A DNA stretch of 7,538 bases from Candidatus Helarchaeota ASGARD archaeon Hel_GB_B (GTDB taxonomy: Archaea; Asgardarchaeota; Lokiarchaeia; Helarchaeales; HEL-GB-B). The DNA lies in contig SUPR01000134.1 in assembly GCA_005191425.1 (NCBI GenBank), positions 1-7,538 on the forward strand, read 5' to 3'. The notes beneath the pieces are model-generated. The model did no database searches. It worked only from the letters and a program-made list of their open reading frames with translations, and was not told where the DNA came from. The translations under genes were made by a program, and so were the position numbers. Shown here in pieces: positions 502-7,538 of this stretch. The stretch's first letter is position 1. Every line of letters begins with the position of its first letter.

Positions 502-1050
502 TTATATTTTAAATACTTCACGTATTCCTAATTTAAAAGCTAATAAATTGTCTTCTAAATATTTACTTTTACTCTCAGATTTTATTATTTTTATAATAGC
601 GTCCTCATTTATAGAATTAACAATTCTAGATAATGCACCCAGATAGCTCATATTTAAAGATGTGGGATATTTTATTGATTTTAAAATCTTTTTTTCGGGA
701 ATTAAATAAATTTTATTTTCATTAAATTGTTGCATTAATTTCTCATCGAAAAATGATTCACCCATTATAATCGTACATTTTTCATTAATTTGATTTTTAT
801 ATTTATTCAGCGCATCTCTTGCCATAATTATATAATAATCAAATTTATTAATATTTAATTCATAAATTTGTTCATTTTTATTCTCAGAAAAAATTATATC
901 AGCTGAAACTATTCCTTTACGTACTTCTGCTCCATATGTTTGTGTTTGAACCACATTTAAGCCCAATTCAAATATACTTTTTGCTAAAATAATTCCACTT
1001 TTTATCGCTCCTTGACCACCTATTCCAGTTATTCTAATTGTTTTAATCAT
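502..1050 (-). CDS. korC: 2-oxoacid:ferredoxin oxidoreductase gamma subunit
   Basis: N-terminal GIGGQG and QTQTYGAEVRKG (cf. QTQSYGPEARGG), late NMSYLGAL and NLLAFKLG motifs, 182 aa. A GAGGT RBS lies upstream (complement of acctc, 1060-1064). Substrate specificity cannot be assigned from sequence. Confidence 0.9.
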   Translation of the reverse strand: MIKTIRITGIGGQGAIKSGIILAKSIFELGLNVVQTQTYGAEVRKGIVSADIIFSENKNEQIYELNINKFDYYIIMARDALNKYKNQINEKCTIIMGESFFDEKLMQQFNENKIYLIPEKKILKSIKYPTSLNMSYLGALSRIVNSINEDAIIKIIKSESKSKYLEDNLLAFKLGIREVFKI

Positions 1051-1109
1051 TGATAAAATACCTCATAATACCTTAACTTATTTATAATAAAATATTTTTT
1101 AATTTAAAT

Positions 1110-1901
1110 TTATGAATGCATATTTTTATTATTTAAAATGTTATTCCTTAATTTATTTAATTGCTCACAAAATTCCGGTAAGTTCTTTTTTACAAAAATA
1201 CCAAATTTTAATTTATCATCTTTATTTTGGACCAATTTTTTGAAATAACGATAATAATCAATTATAGAAAGATTATTTTTACGTCCATATTCTGTAGGGC
1301 ATGGTGATAAAATTTCTACAAAAGAAAAACCTTTATGTATTATTGCATCTTTCATTATTTTTATTAATTTTCTTGGCTGAAATACAGTCCACCTTGCAAT
1401 GAAAGTACCACCAGCTGCCTCAACTAATTTACATAAATCAAATGGCTTTTCTGGATTTCCAAATGGTGTTGTGTCAGTTATGGCATTTTTAGGAGTGGTA
1501 GGAGCAACTTGACCGCCTGTCATCCCATAAATCATGTTATTAACTAGGAAAACCGTAATATCGATATTTCTTCTTGCTGCATGTATTAAATGGTTTCCAC
1601 CAATTCCTGCACCATCTCCATCACCTGTAAAAACTATTACAGTTAAGTTGTTATTAAAAACTTTCGCACCTGTAGCGTAAGCAATAGCTCTTCCATGAAC
1701 TGTATGAAATGTATCCAAATTTAAATATGGGCTTGGGATCCATGATGAACAGCCTATTCCTGAAACACATAAATAGGAATCTAAATCGATATCTAATTGA
1801 TCTATTGCTCTAATAAAACAATTTAATATGATCCCATTCCCACATCCTGAACAAAATTTATGTGGTAAATATCTTAAATATTTATTCATTATTTTTGACA
1901 T
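1110..1901 (-). CDS. korB: 2-oxoacid:ferredoxin oxidoreductase beta subunit (TPP, [4Fe-4S])
   Basis: FCSGCG, SGIGCS, HGRA, the TPP motif GDGD...NN, YGMTGGQVAPTT and ILSPCPT. The start overlaps the alpha stop; the alternative ATG at 1889-1887 gives a TAATG overlap. Confidence 0.93.
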   Translation of the reverse strand: MSKIMNKYLRYLPHKFCSGCGNGIILNCFIRAIDQLDIDLDSYLCVSGIGCSSWIPSPYLNLDTFHTVHGRAIAYATGAKVFNNNLTVIVFTGDGDGAGIGGNHLIHAARRNIDITVFLVNNMIYGMTGGQVAPTTPKNAITDTTPFGNPEKPFDLCKLVEAAGGTFIARWTVFQPRKLIKIMKDAIIHKGFSFVEILSPCPTEYGRKNNLSIIDYYRYFKKLVQNKDDKLKFGIFVKKNLPEFCEQLNKLRNNILNNKNMHS

Positions 1902-3022
1902 TTTAAATACCTTAAAATATTTTCTTTTATAAAATTTATACTAGGTATAACTCCACCTAATTTTTTTATACTAAATATCCTCCTTGGTCTTAAAACTCTT
2001 TGTACTTCCCGTACAGCCATTCCGTTGTTCATTTCTACAACAAAAATATCTGAAATATCTTCATGTACTAAATTATTCAAAATTTCATCTGGAAATGGCC
2101 AAATTGTTTTTAATTTAATAAAACCAATCTTTATTCCCTCCTGCCTTAAACTTAAAACTGCACCTAATGAGGGCCTTGCAGAAACACCCCACGAAATTAT
2201 TAATGATGTAGAATCTTCAATATGATGATATTCTAAATCTATTATATCTTTAGCTTGAGAAATTTTTGAACATATACGATTAATTGTTGATTCATGAACT
2301 TTTGGGTCATAATTTCTTTTACCTGAAATTTCATGAGCAGAACCGGTTATTAATAACTTTTTACCTTCCCCAAAATGAGCCATTGGTAATATATTATCAA
2401 TTAAATCGCTTGAGTTTATTCTATTATTTTTTAAACATTTTCGATTTATTATTTCAATTGCGCCCTTCTCTGGAATTATTAACTGCTCTCTAAAATGTCC
2501 AATAGCACCATCTAATAGGAGAATTACAGGTACTCTATATTTTTCTGATAAATTGAATGATCGAACAGTTAATTCAAATGTTTCTTGAACTGAACTAGGA
2601 CTCAAAACTATTGATTCATAATCACCATGAGCACCATATCTTGATTGATAAAATTCTTGTTGTGCAGGATAAGTAGCTTGTCCTGTTGATGGTCCAGATC
2701 TTTGTACGACAACAATGACAATAGGTGTTTCTGTATGATAAGCATAGGAAATGTTCTCTTGCATTAAACTGAAACCTGGGCCCGATGTTGCTGTCATTGC
2801 TTTTGCCCCTGCCCATGATGCTCCAATAATAGCTGCTGACGAAGCAATTTCATCCTCCATCTGTAAAAAATAACCACCATTCTCAGGTAAGTGTTTTGCC
2901 ATATATTCTGTAATTTCTGTTGCGGGTGTTATTGGATATCCCGCAAAAAAATTACATCCTGCATATAAAGCGCCTTCTGCGCATGCTATATCTCCTAATA
3001 CAAAATATCTTCCCGGCTTCAA
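1889..3022 (-). CDS. korA: 2-oxoacid:ferredoxin oxidoreductase alpha subunit (short, four-subunit type)
   Basis: FAGYPITP, QMEDEIAS, ATSGPGFSLMQE, QRSGPSTG, 377 aa with no fused gamma domain. TTG start with GAGG 7 nt upstream (complement 3030-3033). Confidence 0.93.
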   Translation of the reverse strand: MKPGRYFVLGDIACAEGALYAGCNFFAGYPITPATEITEYMAKHLPENGGYFLQMEDEIASSAAIIGASWAGAKAMTATSGPGFSLMQENISYAYHTETPIVIVVVQRSGPSTGQATYPAQQEFYQSRYGAHGDYESIVLSPSSVQETFELTVRSFNLSEKYRVPVILLLDGAIGHFREQLIIPEKGAIEIINRKCLKNNRINSSDLIDNILPMAHFGEGKKLLITGSAHEISGKRNYDPKVHESTINRICSKISQAKDIIDLEYHHIEDSTSLIISWGVSARPSLGAVLSLRQEGIKIGFIKLKTIWPFPDEILNNLVHEDISDIFVVEMNNGMAVREVQRVLRPRRIFSIKKLGGVIPSINFIKENILRYLKCQK

Positions 3023-3798
3023 CTAAATTCCTCTATTTTAAATATTTTTTATTAAATTTTTTTAAAAAATTATCAATTTTTTAAAATTTATGCTTAATTC
3101 ATTTTTAATTTTGTAATTTTATTATAAATTATATAATTAAACCTTTTTTAGAATTCTATTTTATAATATAAATTTTTAAATAAATGAAGGAAATAAATAT
3201 AGCAAATTTTTAAAATTTTATAATCTTTAATTTTTAAAATTAATTATCAGATTTATTAATTGTTATTCATTAAATTTTACTAAAATTTTATTATATTGTG
3301 AATTGAAAAAATAATACAAAAAAAAGTATAATATTAAAAAACCATTTAATAGTATTTCGATTTTATTTATTATTACTTTAATTAAATATTATTCTAAAAC
3401 TGACCAAATAGATTTGGCAAATTTTTATTTATGTTCATTAAACTAAAAATAGATTGTAAAATGATAATATAGTTTGAAAATATTTTATTTTATAAAAAAA
3501 TAATTGTATTTTTCTAATTTATTATAATAGGTTATCTTATAAAATTAATCAAAAAATATTATTCTATTTTGTCTATTTATTTTAAAAAAATTTAAATACA
3601 TAATTTTGGTTGGTTAGATGAAAGATAATATAAAGAGATTCTTATATTTAATAATAGAGTAGCAAGTAAATTAAAATTTAAAGAACAAAATAAAAAGAAA
3701 TTTTATATTAAAATTAATAAATGTTAAAAAATACAACATTTATTATGAATTATAAATAAAAAAATATGTTGAGGTGACGAAATAGAAAGGTGCTGTAG
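3023..3798. promoter_or_regulatory. Divergent promoter region between korA and hdrA
   Basis: 776-bp non-coding spacer, roughly 10% GC by eye, with several TATA-like boxes (e.g. TTATAAATA at 3750-3758, well placed for hdrA). Individual boxes are not reliable in DNA this AT-rich. Confidence 0.55.
3788..3792 (+). promoter_or_regulatory. Ribosome-binding site for hdrA
   Basis: AGGTG 6 nt before ATG 3799. Confidence 0.6.
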
Positions 3799-5751
3799 AT
3801 GTCTGAAGAAATCCGCATAGGTGTTTATGTTTGTGCTTGAGGCGTTAATATCGGTGGCGTTGTCGATGTAGAAGCTGTTGCAGAGTTTGCCAAAACCTTA
3901 CCAGGTGTTGTATTAGCTAAGACAAGTGCATTTACATGCTCAGAGCCAGGACAGGAAATGATCGCTGAAGATATAGTAAATCATAACTTAAATAGAGTTG
4001 TTGTAGGTGCATGTACACCAAAAATTCATGAACCTACATATAGAGCACTTGTAGAATCAGCTGGTCTAAGTCCATACTATTTTCAAATGGTAAATTTAAG
4101 AGAACATGTATCTTTTGTTAATCCATCATCAAAAGAGGAAGCAACTGAAAAAGCAAAAGCTTTAATTGCAGCTGGTGTTGAAAGAGCTCTTATTTTAGAT
4201 GATGTGCCTCTTAAAGAAATAGACGTCGTGAATCAAGTTTTAGTAATAGGAGCTGGTATTGGCGGTATTAGTGCATCACTTGCCATAGCTAACGCAGGTA
4301 TTAAAACATATCTTGTAGATTCTTTACCTAGCATTGGCGGAAAAATGGCACAGTTAGATAGAGTATTCCCAACTGATGATTGCGCTATTTGAATATTGGC
4401 TCCAAAAATGGTCGAAGCTTCAAGACATCCAAACATAGAGCTTAGAACTTATTGTGAAATTAAAGATATCAAAGGCAGCGCAGGACAATATAAAGTTACT
4501 ATCGAACATAAACCTACATATGTTGATTGGGATAAATGTACTGGTTGCGGTCGATGTATGGAGAAATGTCCAGTATTGGTTCCTAATGAATTTAACTATG
4601 GTTTAGGAACAAGAAAAGCTATAAACATTATTCATCCAAATGCAGTTCCTAAGAAAGCTTACATTGATATGGACGCGTGTATTAAATGTAAACAATGTCA
4701 AAAGAATTGTCTTGCTGATGCTATCAATTATGATATGGAACCTTGGTATGAAGAAATTGAAGTTGGTGCAATTGTAATTGCAACAGGATATGAAACTTAC
4801 GATATTGAAAAACATGGCGATTTCGGATATGGAAAATACTATAATGTTCTTACTCAAATTGAATTAGAAAGATTAATAAGTCCGACTGGACCAACAGGTG
4901 GCCACTTAAAAAGAATATCAGATGGTAAACGTCCAAAACGAATAGCAATGATTCAATGCGTTGGATCAAGGGATGTAAAAACCAATGCTTATTGTTCAGG
5001 TGGAGTTTGCTGTCTTGTTGCTATGAAAAATGCACAATTATTAATACAAGAATACGATGATATTGAAGTATCAATTTTCTATATTGATATAAGAACAACT
5101 TCTAAGGAAGAAGAAGAGTATTATGCAAGAATTCGTGGAGAATTTCCACAAATACGCTTTATTAAAGGAAAGGTTGCAGAAGTTAGAGAGGATCCAGAAA
5201 CGCATAATCTTATTGTTAGAAGCGAAGATGTTATCAGTGGTAAAATAATCAGTCAAGAATTTGATATGGTAGTTCTATCAACAGCAATGGTACCTCATCC
5301 AAAATCTAAACAAATTATGGATTTATTAGGGCTAGACAAAGCGCCATCAGGATTCTTTAAAGAAATCCATACATGTTTAAATCCCGTAGAAACAAAAGCA
5401 AGTGGAATATATATCGGTGGTGCCTGTAGAAATCCAATGGCAGTACCATATACAGTTTCAACTGCAAGAGCTGCAGCTGCAATGGCAATCGATTTTGTAT
5501 CAGCTGGGAAATTCAGACTAGAACTTATAAATCCAGTAATCGATGAATCATTATGTATAGGCTGTGGTACCTGCGAAAGAAATTGCTCATTTAATGCTAT
5601 AAAAATCGGAGATGATGGTATAGCCCATTTAAATGAAATAGCTTGCAAGGGTTGTGGCGTCTGTGCTTCAAGTTGTCCAGTAAAAGCTATATCATTTAGA
5701 TATTATCGTGATGAACAATTATTAAACGAAATTGATGCTATTATATTATAA
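3799..5751 (+). CDS. hdrA: Heterodisulfide reductase subunit A, selenoprotein with two Sec (U14, U198), 650 aa
   Basis: One continuous frame interrupted only by TGA 3838-3840 (MSEEIRIGVYVCA-U-GVNIGG, cf. VCHCGxNI) and TGA 4390-4392 (FPTDDCAI-U-ILAPKM, the CxxU site of methanococcal HdrA). Also FAD motif GAGIGG, inserted ferredoxin (CTGCGRC, CIKCKQC), ELER, QCVGSR...YCSGGVCC...AMKN and a C-terminal ferredoxin (CIGCGTC, CKGCGVC). Ends in TAA. Joins track ORFs 3958..4392 and 4396..5751. Confidence 0.96.
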
Positions 5752-5833
5752 CACGCCTATTTGATGACTACAATGATTAAAAGTTTAAAATCATTGTAGA
5801 AAAAAGGGTTTATGCGACCCTTAAGGCGTGTTA
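5749..5833 (+). ncRNA. SECIS element of hdrA (eukaryote-like core, variant) within a three-way junction
   Basis: ATGA 5764-5767; helix CTACAATGATT 5768-5778 / AATCATTGTAG 5789-5799; loop starting AAAA; GA 5799-5800; hairpin AAGGGT/ACCCTT 5804-5822; outer helix TAACACGCCT 5749-5758 / AGGCGTGTTA 5824-5833. Confidence 0.8.
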
Positions 5834-5942
5834 ATATCGAATTATAAATTTTATTCCCCTCAATACTAAAATAATGTTTAAAATTAACAATACTGTTAAT
5901 AAAATATATGTAAATATTAAAAAGCCCTAAATGTGAATTAAA

Positions 5943-6353
5943 ATGGAAGAACATTTTAGGGTAGTTGCATTTGCCTGTAATAAATGAGGTTATGGGGCTG
6001 CAGACCTCACAGGAACTACCCGAAATAAATATCCTACAGATATTAGGATTATTAGAGTAAGATGCACAGGACGTATCGATGCTTATCATCTACTTCATGC
6101 ATTTAGAAGTGGCGCGGATGCAGTAATGGTAGTATCTTGACATATCGGTGAATGTGATTTCAATAATGGTAATATAAAAGCATTATCTAGAGTTAACTTC
6201 GTTAAAAGAGTATTAGACAAAATTGGACTTGACGGAAGTAGAGTAAATTTATACGAATGTGGTGCAGCAGAATTCAATATATTCTTAGAATCAGTAGCTC
6301 ATACAATGAAAATCTTGAAAAAAATTGGCCCCAATCCACTTAAAAAAATGTAA
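5943..6353 (+). CDS. mvhD: MvhD/VhuD [2Fe-2S] subunit, selenoprotein with two Sec (U15, U66), 136 aa
   Basis: MEEHFRVVAFACNK-U-GYGAADLTGTTRNKYPTDIRIIRVRCTGRID...GADAVMVVS-U-HIGECDFNNGN...KIGPNPLKKM*. The TGAs at 5985-5987 and 6138-6140 match the two Sec positions of methanococcal VhuD (CxxU-GYGAAD and xU-xxG-E/D-C). Absent from the ORF track. Confidence 0.95.
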
Positions 6354-6424
6354 ATTTGAATGAGTCTCGAATGTAAAGATTTAAATTCGAGATGACAGCC
6401 CTTGAAAGCGAAGGGCTAAATTTA
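6351..6424 (+). ncRNA. SECIS element of mvhD/vhuD (eukaryote-like AUGA-AAA-GA) within a three-way junction
   Basis: ATGA 6360-6363; helix GTCTCGAAT 6364-6372 / ATTCGAGAT 6385-6393; loop containing AAA 6375-6377; GA 6394-6395; hairpin AGCCCTT/AAGGGCT 6397-6417; outer helix TAAATTT 6351-6357 / AAATTTA 6418-6424. Confidence 0.88.
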
Positions 6425-6471: not shown

Positions 6472-7538
6472 ATGATAGAACTAACAAAAGAGATTATGAA
6501 TGCTATAACAGAAGTAAGCGCTGGTAGTTTATTTGTAAGGTCTCTATTAGAAAATCATGATACAATAATAAATGCTGAAAAATTAAACGAAAATAAATTA
6601 GAAATAATTCTTGATAAATTAATGGATATAGAAGTAGAAAAATTCAGGATACTTTTATATATATTATCTACGGGTAGCGCAACTGTTTCTCAAATTGAAA
6701 ATGACTTGAAAATATCAAAATTCAATATTTTAAAAAATATATTTACATTACAGAATGAAGGATGGCTTGAAATCAGAGATATCAATGAATTAAATTATGG
6801 AATATCGTTGAAAGTTGATGTCTTAAATGATAAAATAAATGTTAATTTAATAGCACCATGGAATATAAGAACAGTATATGACCCAATAAAAATTATCGTT
6901 GAAAATGAATTTTGTTGTTTATGCGGTGCCTGTAAAACGGTATGTCCAGTTAATGCGATAGAGATTATTGATGATAAACCAGTTATTGACGAAGAAAAAT
7001 GTATTCATTGTGGACTTTGTAATTATCATTGTCCAAGAACTTTTCTACCACTGAATGTGTTAAAAGAATTTTCGACTGGAGATAATTATAATCCATATCA
7101 ACTCTTGAGTACCCAACCATTTGGTCCATGCAAAATAATTAAATCTGCACAAACTACGGATGATAAAATTAAACAAGTATGCCAAGATGGAGGAATGGTA
7201 ACTACTTTTATCAAATATCTTTTCGATAAAAAACTAATAGATGGTGCAGTTGTAACAAAAAGAAAACCAGATTCATGGGATACTCAGCCAGTTGTAGTTA
7301 CAAGATATGAAAGTCTATTAGAAACATCTGGTACTAAATATGCAGTCTCGCCAAATTTGATAGCATTAGAGCAAGCAGCTGAATTAGGATGTAAAAAATT
7401 AGCTTTTATTGGTACTCCATGTCAAGTTCAAGCAATTAGAAAATATCAAGTATATTCTAATATTTATCAGGAGATCTGGGGATCTATAGAATATGTAATT
7501 GGAATTTTTTGCATGGAATCATTCTCATATCCTAATGT
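6472..7538 (+). CDS. 3'-truncated FrhB/FdhB/FpoF-family (F420-binding flavoprotein) protein with N-terminal winged-HTH and 2x[4Fe-4S] ferredoxin domains
   Basis: The frame is open from ATG 6472 to the window end, so the track omits it. It contains RILLYILSTGSATVSQIENDLKISKFNILKNIFTLQNEGWLEI (wHTH-like), CCLCGACKTVCP (from 6913), CIHCGLCNYHCP (from 7000), and the FrhB motifs QDGGMVT, IDGAVV, SGTKY, FIGTPCQ and IGIFCMESF. Confidence 0.9.
   Translation, partial: MIELTKEIMNAITEVSAGSLFVRSLLENHDTIINAEKLNENKLEIILDKLMDIEVEKFRILLYILSTGSATVSQIENDLKISKFNILKNIFTLQNEGWLEIRDINELNYGISLKVDVLNDKINVNLIAPWNIRTVYDPIKIIVENEFCCLCGACKTVCPVNAIEIIDDKPVIDEEKCIHCGLCNYHCPRTFLPLNVLKEFSTGDNYNPYQLLSTQPFGPCKIIKSAQTTDDKIKQVCQDGGMVTTFIKYLFDKKLIDGAVVTKRKPDSWDTQPVVVTRYESLLETSGTKYAVSPNLIALEQAAELGCKKLAFIGTPCQVQAIRKYQVYSNIYQEIWGSIEYVIGIFCMESFSYPN

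Follow-up and report, generated by a model that had tools for sequence, protein, structure and literature searches.

The contig SUPR01000134.1 of Candidatus Helarchaeota ASGARD archaeon Hel_GB_B (assembly GCA_005191425.1), which was studied over its whole length of 7538 bp (the window), carries on its plus strand an hdrA gene in which two TGA codons, at codons 14 and 198, interrupt an otherwise open frame, followed by a vhuD/mvhD-like gene. Taken as a whole, this locus is very probably best explained by a genuine HdrA with two selenocysteine (Sec, U) residues, i.e., the flavin-containing electron-bifurcating subunit in the heterodisulfide reductase family, from a Helarchaeales/Lokiarchaeia-type Asgard archaeon, together with the use of selenocysteine insertion sequence (SECIS) elements and the roles of the two Sec residues that are put forward below. 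The contig belongs to a metagenome-assembled genome (MAG; G000) of 3.54 Mb in 182 contigs with 28% G+C.

When TGA is read as Sec, the coding sequence (3799–5751) comprises 650 codons and ends in a TAA stop. Sec codon 14 (TGA, 3838–3840) is the second position of the N-terminal CxC motif, C12-A-U14-G, within V-C-A-U-G-V-N-I, while Sec codon 198 (TGA, 4390–4392) lies in D-D-C195-A-I-U198-I-L-A-P, the canonical HdrA Sec site. Between them, codon 104 (GTA, 4108–4110) gives Val in L-R-E-H-V-S-F-V-N, at a position that is Cys, Asp or Asn in other HdrA. A preliminary description of this DNA had named both TGA codons, the Val of the REHVSFVN motif and C12, C47, C72 and C195, and reading the frame with TGA as Sec confirmed every one of them at its position. 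It had also foreseen that standard annotation would truncate or split the gene, which is indeed what happens: translation table 11 gives two open reading frames (ORFs; 3958–4392 and 4396–5751), and the closest database relatives (81–88% identity) are 447-residue ORFs that start 3′ of the second TGA and are filed as '4Fe-4S binding protein' from Helarchaeota or Promethearchaeota MAGs.

The product matches solved HdrA structures from end to end (9sfi_A, E 2e-213, residues 5–649; 5odc_A, E 4e-208). The four-domain architecture of HdrA, which consists of an N-terminal MvhD-like domain, a thioredoxin-reductase-like flavin adenine dinucleotide (FAD) domain, and an inserted and a C-terminal 2x[4Fe-4S] ferredoxin domain, was recovered in Pfam (Fer4, Pyr_redox_2 and FAD families) and in the alignments to 9sfi_A, 5odc_A, 8rvu_a and 7bkb_A. 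In addition, an AlphaFold model of residues 1–135 (predicted local distance difference test score, pLDDT, 91.8) superposed on the N-domain of 5odc_A with a template-modelling (TM) score of 0.95 and a root-mean-square deviation of 1.0 Å.

The split under table 11, together with the W that stands at these sites in public gene calls of relatives, could also be taken to mean that the TGAs are true stops or errors, that is to say, that the gene is broken or split, that the assembly is wrong, or that TGA is recoded to Trp or Gly throughout the genome. This explanation is exceedingly improbable in view of the following evidence. First of all, contigs from two DNA runs, each of a different study, show both TGAs without any change, although one of the runs is possibly the MAG's own source; one contig covers 3789–5775 with zero differences, and the other covers 3784–5893 with three differences, two of which are listed (4668 and 5520) and none of which is listed at the TGAs. 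The preliminary description had named reads with TGY at codons 14 and 198 as counter-evidence, and TGA was found there in the contigs of both runs. Secondly, when the first 230 codons were compared with those of two orthologues (in genomes G004 and G003) and one paralogue (on contig C26), 89–115 synonymous and 14–31 amino-acid differences were counted, and both sites remained TGA in all three; so many synonymous and so few amino-acid changes, with the TGAs kept, indicate strong purifying selection and TGAs that are coding.

Moreover, the alignment to solved HdrA, which had been proposed as a check, showed that the TGAs fall on Cys columns only, U14 and U198 both being aligned to Cys of the solved Methanothermococcus thermolithotrophicus HdrA. 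The U14 column holds the Cys of CYCG/CHCG in 9sfi_A and 5odc_A, while the U198 column holds Cys197 of 5odc_A and X (Sec) of M. maripaludis 9sfi_A, in agreement with the earlier identification of U198 with the canonical methanococcal HdrA Sec site. As for recoding, TGA is an ordinary stop in this MAG, closing 216 of 1368 frames of at least 300 codons, and no in-frame TGA occurs in the other genes of the contig, hdrA and vhuD apart. A SECIS and the full Sec machinery, described below, likewise stand against a reading of the TGAs as stops or errors. The candidates pseudogene, assembly error and genome-wide TGA recoding were rejected on the grounds that the runs agree, that purifying selection is seen and that TGA is an ordinary stop.

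The absence of Sec machinery from the genome had been named beforehand as a result that would count against a two-Sec HdrA; EFSec, SepSecS, PSTK, SelD and tRNA-Sec were all found in the MAG. The EFSec/SelB gene lies on contig C9 (M. maripaludis SelB 4ac9, E 1e-101; TIGR00475, 278 bits with a cut-off of 242), with SepSecS (380 bits) adjoining it downstream, and a PSTK-like KTI12 protein is encoded on the same contig; SelD, on contig C31, has an in-frame TGA and is thus a Sec-containing SelD. The Pfam models PF21208 and PF21131 gave no match anywhere, the controls included, and are therefore uninformative for EFSec. On the unedited sequence, tRNA-Sec was detected in the MAG neither by Rfam RF01852 nor by ARAGORN; in three relatives from this order, however, a tRNA-Sec does score above the cut-off of Rfam, and with that of G003 as the probe, the gene was located by DNA similarity at C9:14937–15127, i.e., on the contig of EFSec, SepSecS and PSTK. 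It contains three putative introns of 45, 24 and 27 nt, one following the acceptor/D region, one 3′ of the anticodon and one within the T-loop, and after their removal in silico ARAGORN calls tRNA-SeC(tca). Its outer segments, GGCGTTCTG and CAGAACGCC, form a perfect 9-bp acceptor stem. Introns in tRNA-Sec are not mentioned in the 2024 paper on the Asgard selenoproteome (PMC11227280). For the tRNA genes of the MAG in general, it was observed that the MAG is 94% complete by marker genes, yet only 6 tRNAs were called by ARAGORN and ~16 by Rfam, several of the matches being 90–120 nt long, which suggests that many of its tRNA genes are intron-rich or unassembled.

Two eukaryote-like SECIS-type hairpins accompany the two Sec genes, one in the 3′ untranslated region of each. 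SECIS 1 (5749–5833, plus strand), which adjoins the hdrA stop, has a minimum free energy of −33.4 kcal/mol and a z-score of −7.07, and is composed of a lower stem (5749–5758/5824–5833), an AUGA core (5764–5767), an 11-bp helix (5768–5778/5789–5799), an A-rich loop, AAAAGUUUAA, a 3′ AA (the AUGA_AA variant) and a G+C-rich side hairpin (5804–5810/5816–5822). SECIS 2 (6351–6424, plus strand; z −4.79), after vhuD, has the canonical form, with AUGA at 6360–6363, a 9-bp helix (6364–6372/6385–6393), 3′ GA at 6394–6395 and a side hairpin (6397–6403/6411–6417), and the G004 orthologue has the same element. Both are three-way junctions made of a lower stem, a kink-turn arm and a small G+C-rich side hairpin, and both show the features of lokiSECIS, or Asgard type I eSECIS-like, elements, namely a 5′ AUGA, a helix of ~9–11 bp, an A-rich apical loop of ~10–12 nt and a 3′ GA (or AA), near a stop codon. 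Covariation in SECIS 1 was tested on a four-sequence alignment (the locus with the two orthologues and the C26 paralogue) against a stated structure: 92% of the cells were paired and 7 pairs had compensatory changes, a level that none of 500 shuffles reached, while slid controls were paired at 36–54%. RNAalifold, applied to eight divergent SECIS, predicted no structure, the sequences having been misaligned by MAFFT, and no Rfam SECIS family matched within the 7538-nt contig.

A SECIS-type element follows its own stop in all four Sec hdrA genes of the MAG, while hdrA genes of the order with spacers of 1–16 nt are without a SECIS of their own. It has been reported that 'almost all' hdrA–vhuD pairs share one SECIS, and the AUGA_AA core has been mentioned for Helarchaeales (PMC11227280). 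In the proposed mechanism, the SECIS hairpins would recruit EFSec with Sec-tRNA, and the hdrA-proximal SECIS would serve codons 14 and 198. As a separate observation, the two-Sec hdrA paralogue at C122:6623–8611 is followed by a gene for a long fused HdrA-like protein rather than by vhuD, and a SECIS-like hairpin begins at its own stop codon (UAG-AUGA). In addition, a 229-nt metatranscriptome contig from marine sediment matches 5784–6012 with zero differences and extends from SECIS 1 through the spacer to a point in vhuD beyond Sec codon 15; this is a weak hint that hdrA and vhuD are co-transcribed.

The preliminary description had called such a two-Sec HdrA rare, an estimate that did not hold: the N-terminal C-x-U is usual in Asgard Sec-HdrA. 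In this MAG, it occurs in 4 of 4 Sec paralogues, with TGA at both sites, the Cys paralogues having C-H-C-G; across seven genomes of the order, both Sec sites are present in all 17 Sec-HdrA genes, one of which (G005:C11) carries one more Sec, at the position of C72. In the sequences published with the 2024 Asgard selenoproteome, where Sec is written as X, there are 148 'XGVNI' and 192 'XGINI' strings, i.e., ~340 HdrA with an N-terminal Sec (PMC11227280), and one of the entries has Sec at position 47. All the further Sec sites, that is, position 72 and, in the one published sequence, 47, coincide with invariant Cys of the domain that holds the N-terminal cluster. In line with the preliminary description, multi-Sec HdrA was reported earlier for Lokiarchaeota (PMC4989117), and the HdrA and VhuD of the present locus are themselves in the 2024 supplement (files 77 and 75) as Lokiarchaeia_GCA_005191425_U_3, to which four long peptides were matched; HdrA has X at 14 in its printed start and X at 198 in the aligned passage, and VhuD is printed with two X. 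Among full-length database relatives (52–56% identical), W stands at both sites in 21 of 22, and in two also at position 72. The W at the Sec positions of these 21 public predictions is there because TGA was called as Trp; evidently, a code with TGA=Trp was used by gene callers on short contigs, and these selenoproteins are thereby hidden in the databases. Position 104 reads V, V, V, C, D, D, D and C across the HdrA paralogues of the MAG, and at least 25 of the published Asgard Sec-HdrA have the Val104 variant RE[HQ]V[SA]F; since C, D, N and V are all found at this position, it cannot be an essential ligand.

With regard to function, the HdrA N-domain has just four invariant Cys-type positions, C12, U14, C47 and C72, and because U14 is among them, it most likely would ligate or flank the mobile [4Fe-4S] shuttle cluster that this MvhD-like domain carries. 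U198 would be the last residue of a C-x-x-C/U pair beside the bifurcating FAD, and in solved methanogen complexes this pair contacts the mobile arm of the partner. The N-terminal cluster (HA3) has been described as a 'shuttle' that a mobile arm brings to within ~20 Å or more of the FAD of the partner (PMC13580544, PMC12350162). The two Sec residues would then sit on two faces that are brought together by docking of the shuttle cluster close to the flavin of the partner, and selenium there could speed or tune electron transfer.

The part played by the two residues at this contact can be pictured in different ways. In the arrangement suggested in the preliminary description, U14 and the partner's U198′ would both bind irons of the N-terminal cluster, giving one [4Fe-4S] cluster with two Se ligands. 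In the crystal structure, Cys197 of the partner protomer ligates this cluster according to a secondary source (PMC9012536), the N-domain has no invariant Cys-type residues beyond the four already named, position 104 being dispensable, and U14 and U198 always occur together in Asgard Sec-HdrA, all of which fits such an arrangement. The four N-domain residues and U198′ make five candidates for four irons, however, so that at least one of them would be a non-ligand at any time; the conserved pair Cys202/Cys205 (here C195/U198) has been described as 'additional' cysteines holding an unidentified ligand (PMC13580544), which, like the ~20 Å or more between the shuttle cluster and the FAD′, does not agree with it; and for M. 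maripaludis, a density connecting Sec197 to a Cys has been described between cluster A3 and FAD, with a selenylsulfide relay proposed instead (PMC13518236). A cluster with two Se ligands is considered rather unlikely.

That electron shuttle between Cys and Sec leads to another possibility, to which tentative and still limited weight is given, in which U14 is a redox-active partner rather than a ligand: upon docking of the arm, it would be linked transiently to C195′/U198′ as a selenylsulfide or diselenide, i.e., a thiol/selenol relay between the shuttle cluster and the flavin. Such a role would parallel that of MvhD Cys16, which corresponds to Sec15 in VhuD and has been described, like HdrA Cys202/205, as a further 'additional' conserved cysteine between cluster and FAD (PMC13580544). 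MvhD chains are also the next-best structural matches of the N-domain model (E ~1e-3), and an hhalign profile alignment of the HdrA N-domain with VhuD pairs C12 with C12, U14 with U15, C47 with C41 and C72 with U66, so that the HdrA Sec positions 14 and 72 would mirror VhuD 15 and 66; with an E of 0.014 and a probability of 3%, this weak match is taken as a lead only. Unlike MvhD, moreover, the HdrA N-domain is without a fifth conserved Cys, and if U14 were set aside, it would be left with three ligands of its own for a [4Fe-4S] cluster. A complex prediction for a Cys-type relative (residues 1–137 against 138–571, with four 4Fe-4S clusters) gave a score of 0.01 and no contacts, and counts neither way; the literature searched yielded no paper in which the ligands of the N-terminal cluster are named one by one.

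Going one step further from U14 as ligand, it may be conjectured, with low confidence and as something rather improbable in its full form, that the shuttle cluster of Asgard HdrA is Se-ligated (by U14 and, in some paralogues, by U72 or U47) and docks on the C-x-x-U beside the partner's flavin, an Fe-Se or Se-Se contact at the dimer interface acting as an electron gate. The 'five Sec positions' of 2016 were not found mapped in this way onto the structures published after 2017 in the literature searched.

Several points weigh against the interpretation of the locus as a two-Sec, electron-bifurcating HdrA with its own SECIS. The evidence for Sec at 14 and 198 in this organism is at the level of sequence, not of protein (mass spectrometry, 75Se). 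None of the three NCBIfam equivalog models for methanogen HdrA reached its cut-off (HdrA2 NF040770, 786 bits against 1100; NF041778, 574 against 1400; NF041891, 541 against 1300); judged by these scores, the protein is a member of the HdrA family and not an equivalog of the methanogen enzymes. No hdrBC genes are present in the 7.5-kb contig, the neighbours of hdrA being vhuD and a frhB-like gene. As for the SECIS, the core of SECIS 1 is AUGA_AA, not AUGA_GA; the Loki pairs of 2016, whose spacers are very short, have only one SECIS, placed after vhuD (PMC4989117), whereas here hdrA and vhuD are separated by a spacer of 191 nt and hdrA has its own SECIS. Finally, the roles given to U14 and U198 are drawn from homology and from papers on methanogen enzymes, and these papers differ over the Cys197/205 position, which some take as a cluster ligand and others as part of a separate redox pair.

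Among the known systems, the Asgard multi-Sec HdrA with two-Sec VhuD (PMC4989117, PMC11227280) are alike in the canonical Sec at ~200, in further Cys-aligned Sec sites, in a two-Sec VhuD downstream on the same strand, in eukaryote-like AUGA...GA SECIS and in the TAA stop of hdrA; the present locus has the Cys-aligned UGAs including the ~200 site, the downstream two-Sec vhuD, the Sec machinery and the published catalogue listing that mark this class. The HdrA(u) of M. maripaludis, known from cryo-electron microscopy (cryo-EM) structures 9SFI/9T1S (PMC13518236), is the best solved match, has the same D-D-C-A-x-U Sec site and shares a non-Cys residue, there Asp, at 104; it differs in having Cys rather than Sec in the N-terminal C-x-C and an archaeal-type SECIS, and in working with HdrBC, Vhu and Fwd in methanogenesis, a role that is not expected for the present protein. 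The HdrA of M. thermolithotrophicus (HdrABC-MvhAGD, 5ODC/5ODH) is the same four-domain protein and the reference for Cys197′ at the N-terminal cluster of the partner, but it is all-Cys, with Cys13, 103 and 197 where the present HdrA has Sec, Val and Sec.

Regarding the rest of the window, the vhuD/mvhD-like gene (5943–6353, plus strand) has 136 codons and a TAA stop, with Sec codons 15 (5985–5987) and 66 (6138–6140), and matches Pfam FlpD (E 4e-41) and NCBIfam VhuD (157 bits). It is followed on the same strand by a FrhB/FdhB-like gene (6472–7538), which is cut by the contig end and is probably the third gene of the hdrA–vhuD unit; it has the Pfam domains FrhB_FdhB_N, FrhB_FdhB_C and Fer4 (2x[4Fe-4S]), with the NCBIfam frhB-like model below its cut-off, and ~135 N-terminal residues without a Pfam match precede these domains. 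Upstream of hdrA, on the minus strand, Pfam identifies the alpha, beta and gamma subunits of a 2-oxoacid:ferredoxin oxidoreductase (502–3022). The divergent intergenic region between this operon and hdrA is extremely A+T-rich, with 12% G+C over 500 nt (3001–3500).

As a gene finding, the two-Sec HdrA adds nothing, being already known down to the identical sequence: a description of the type dates from 2016, and the 2024 catalogue includes this sequence. It serves as a practical reminder that standard annotation truncates Sec-HdrA genes and that in some public gene calls Trp stands for the Sec codons. As for the enzyme, the 2026 cryo-EM papers left unsettled the electron path that leads over ~20 Å or more from the mobile clusters to the bifurcating flavin, and pointed to the C-x-x-C/U pair (PMC13580544, PMC13518236). 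With selenium on both sides of the contact between cluster and flavin, the Asgard enzymes would be a natural probe of this path, for example by Se spectroscopy.

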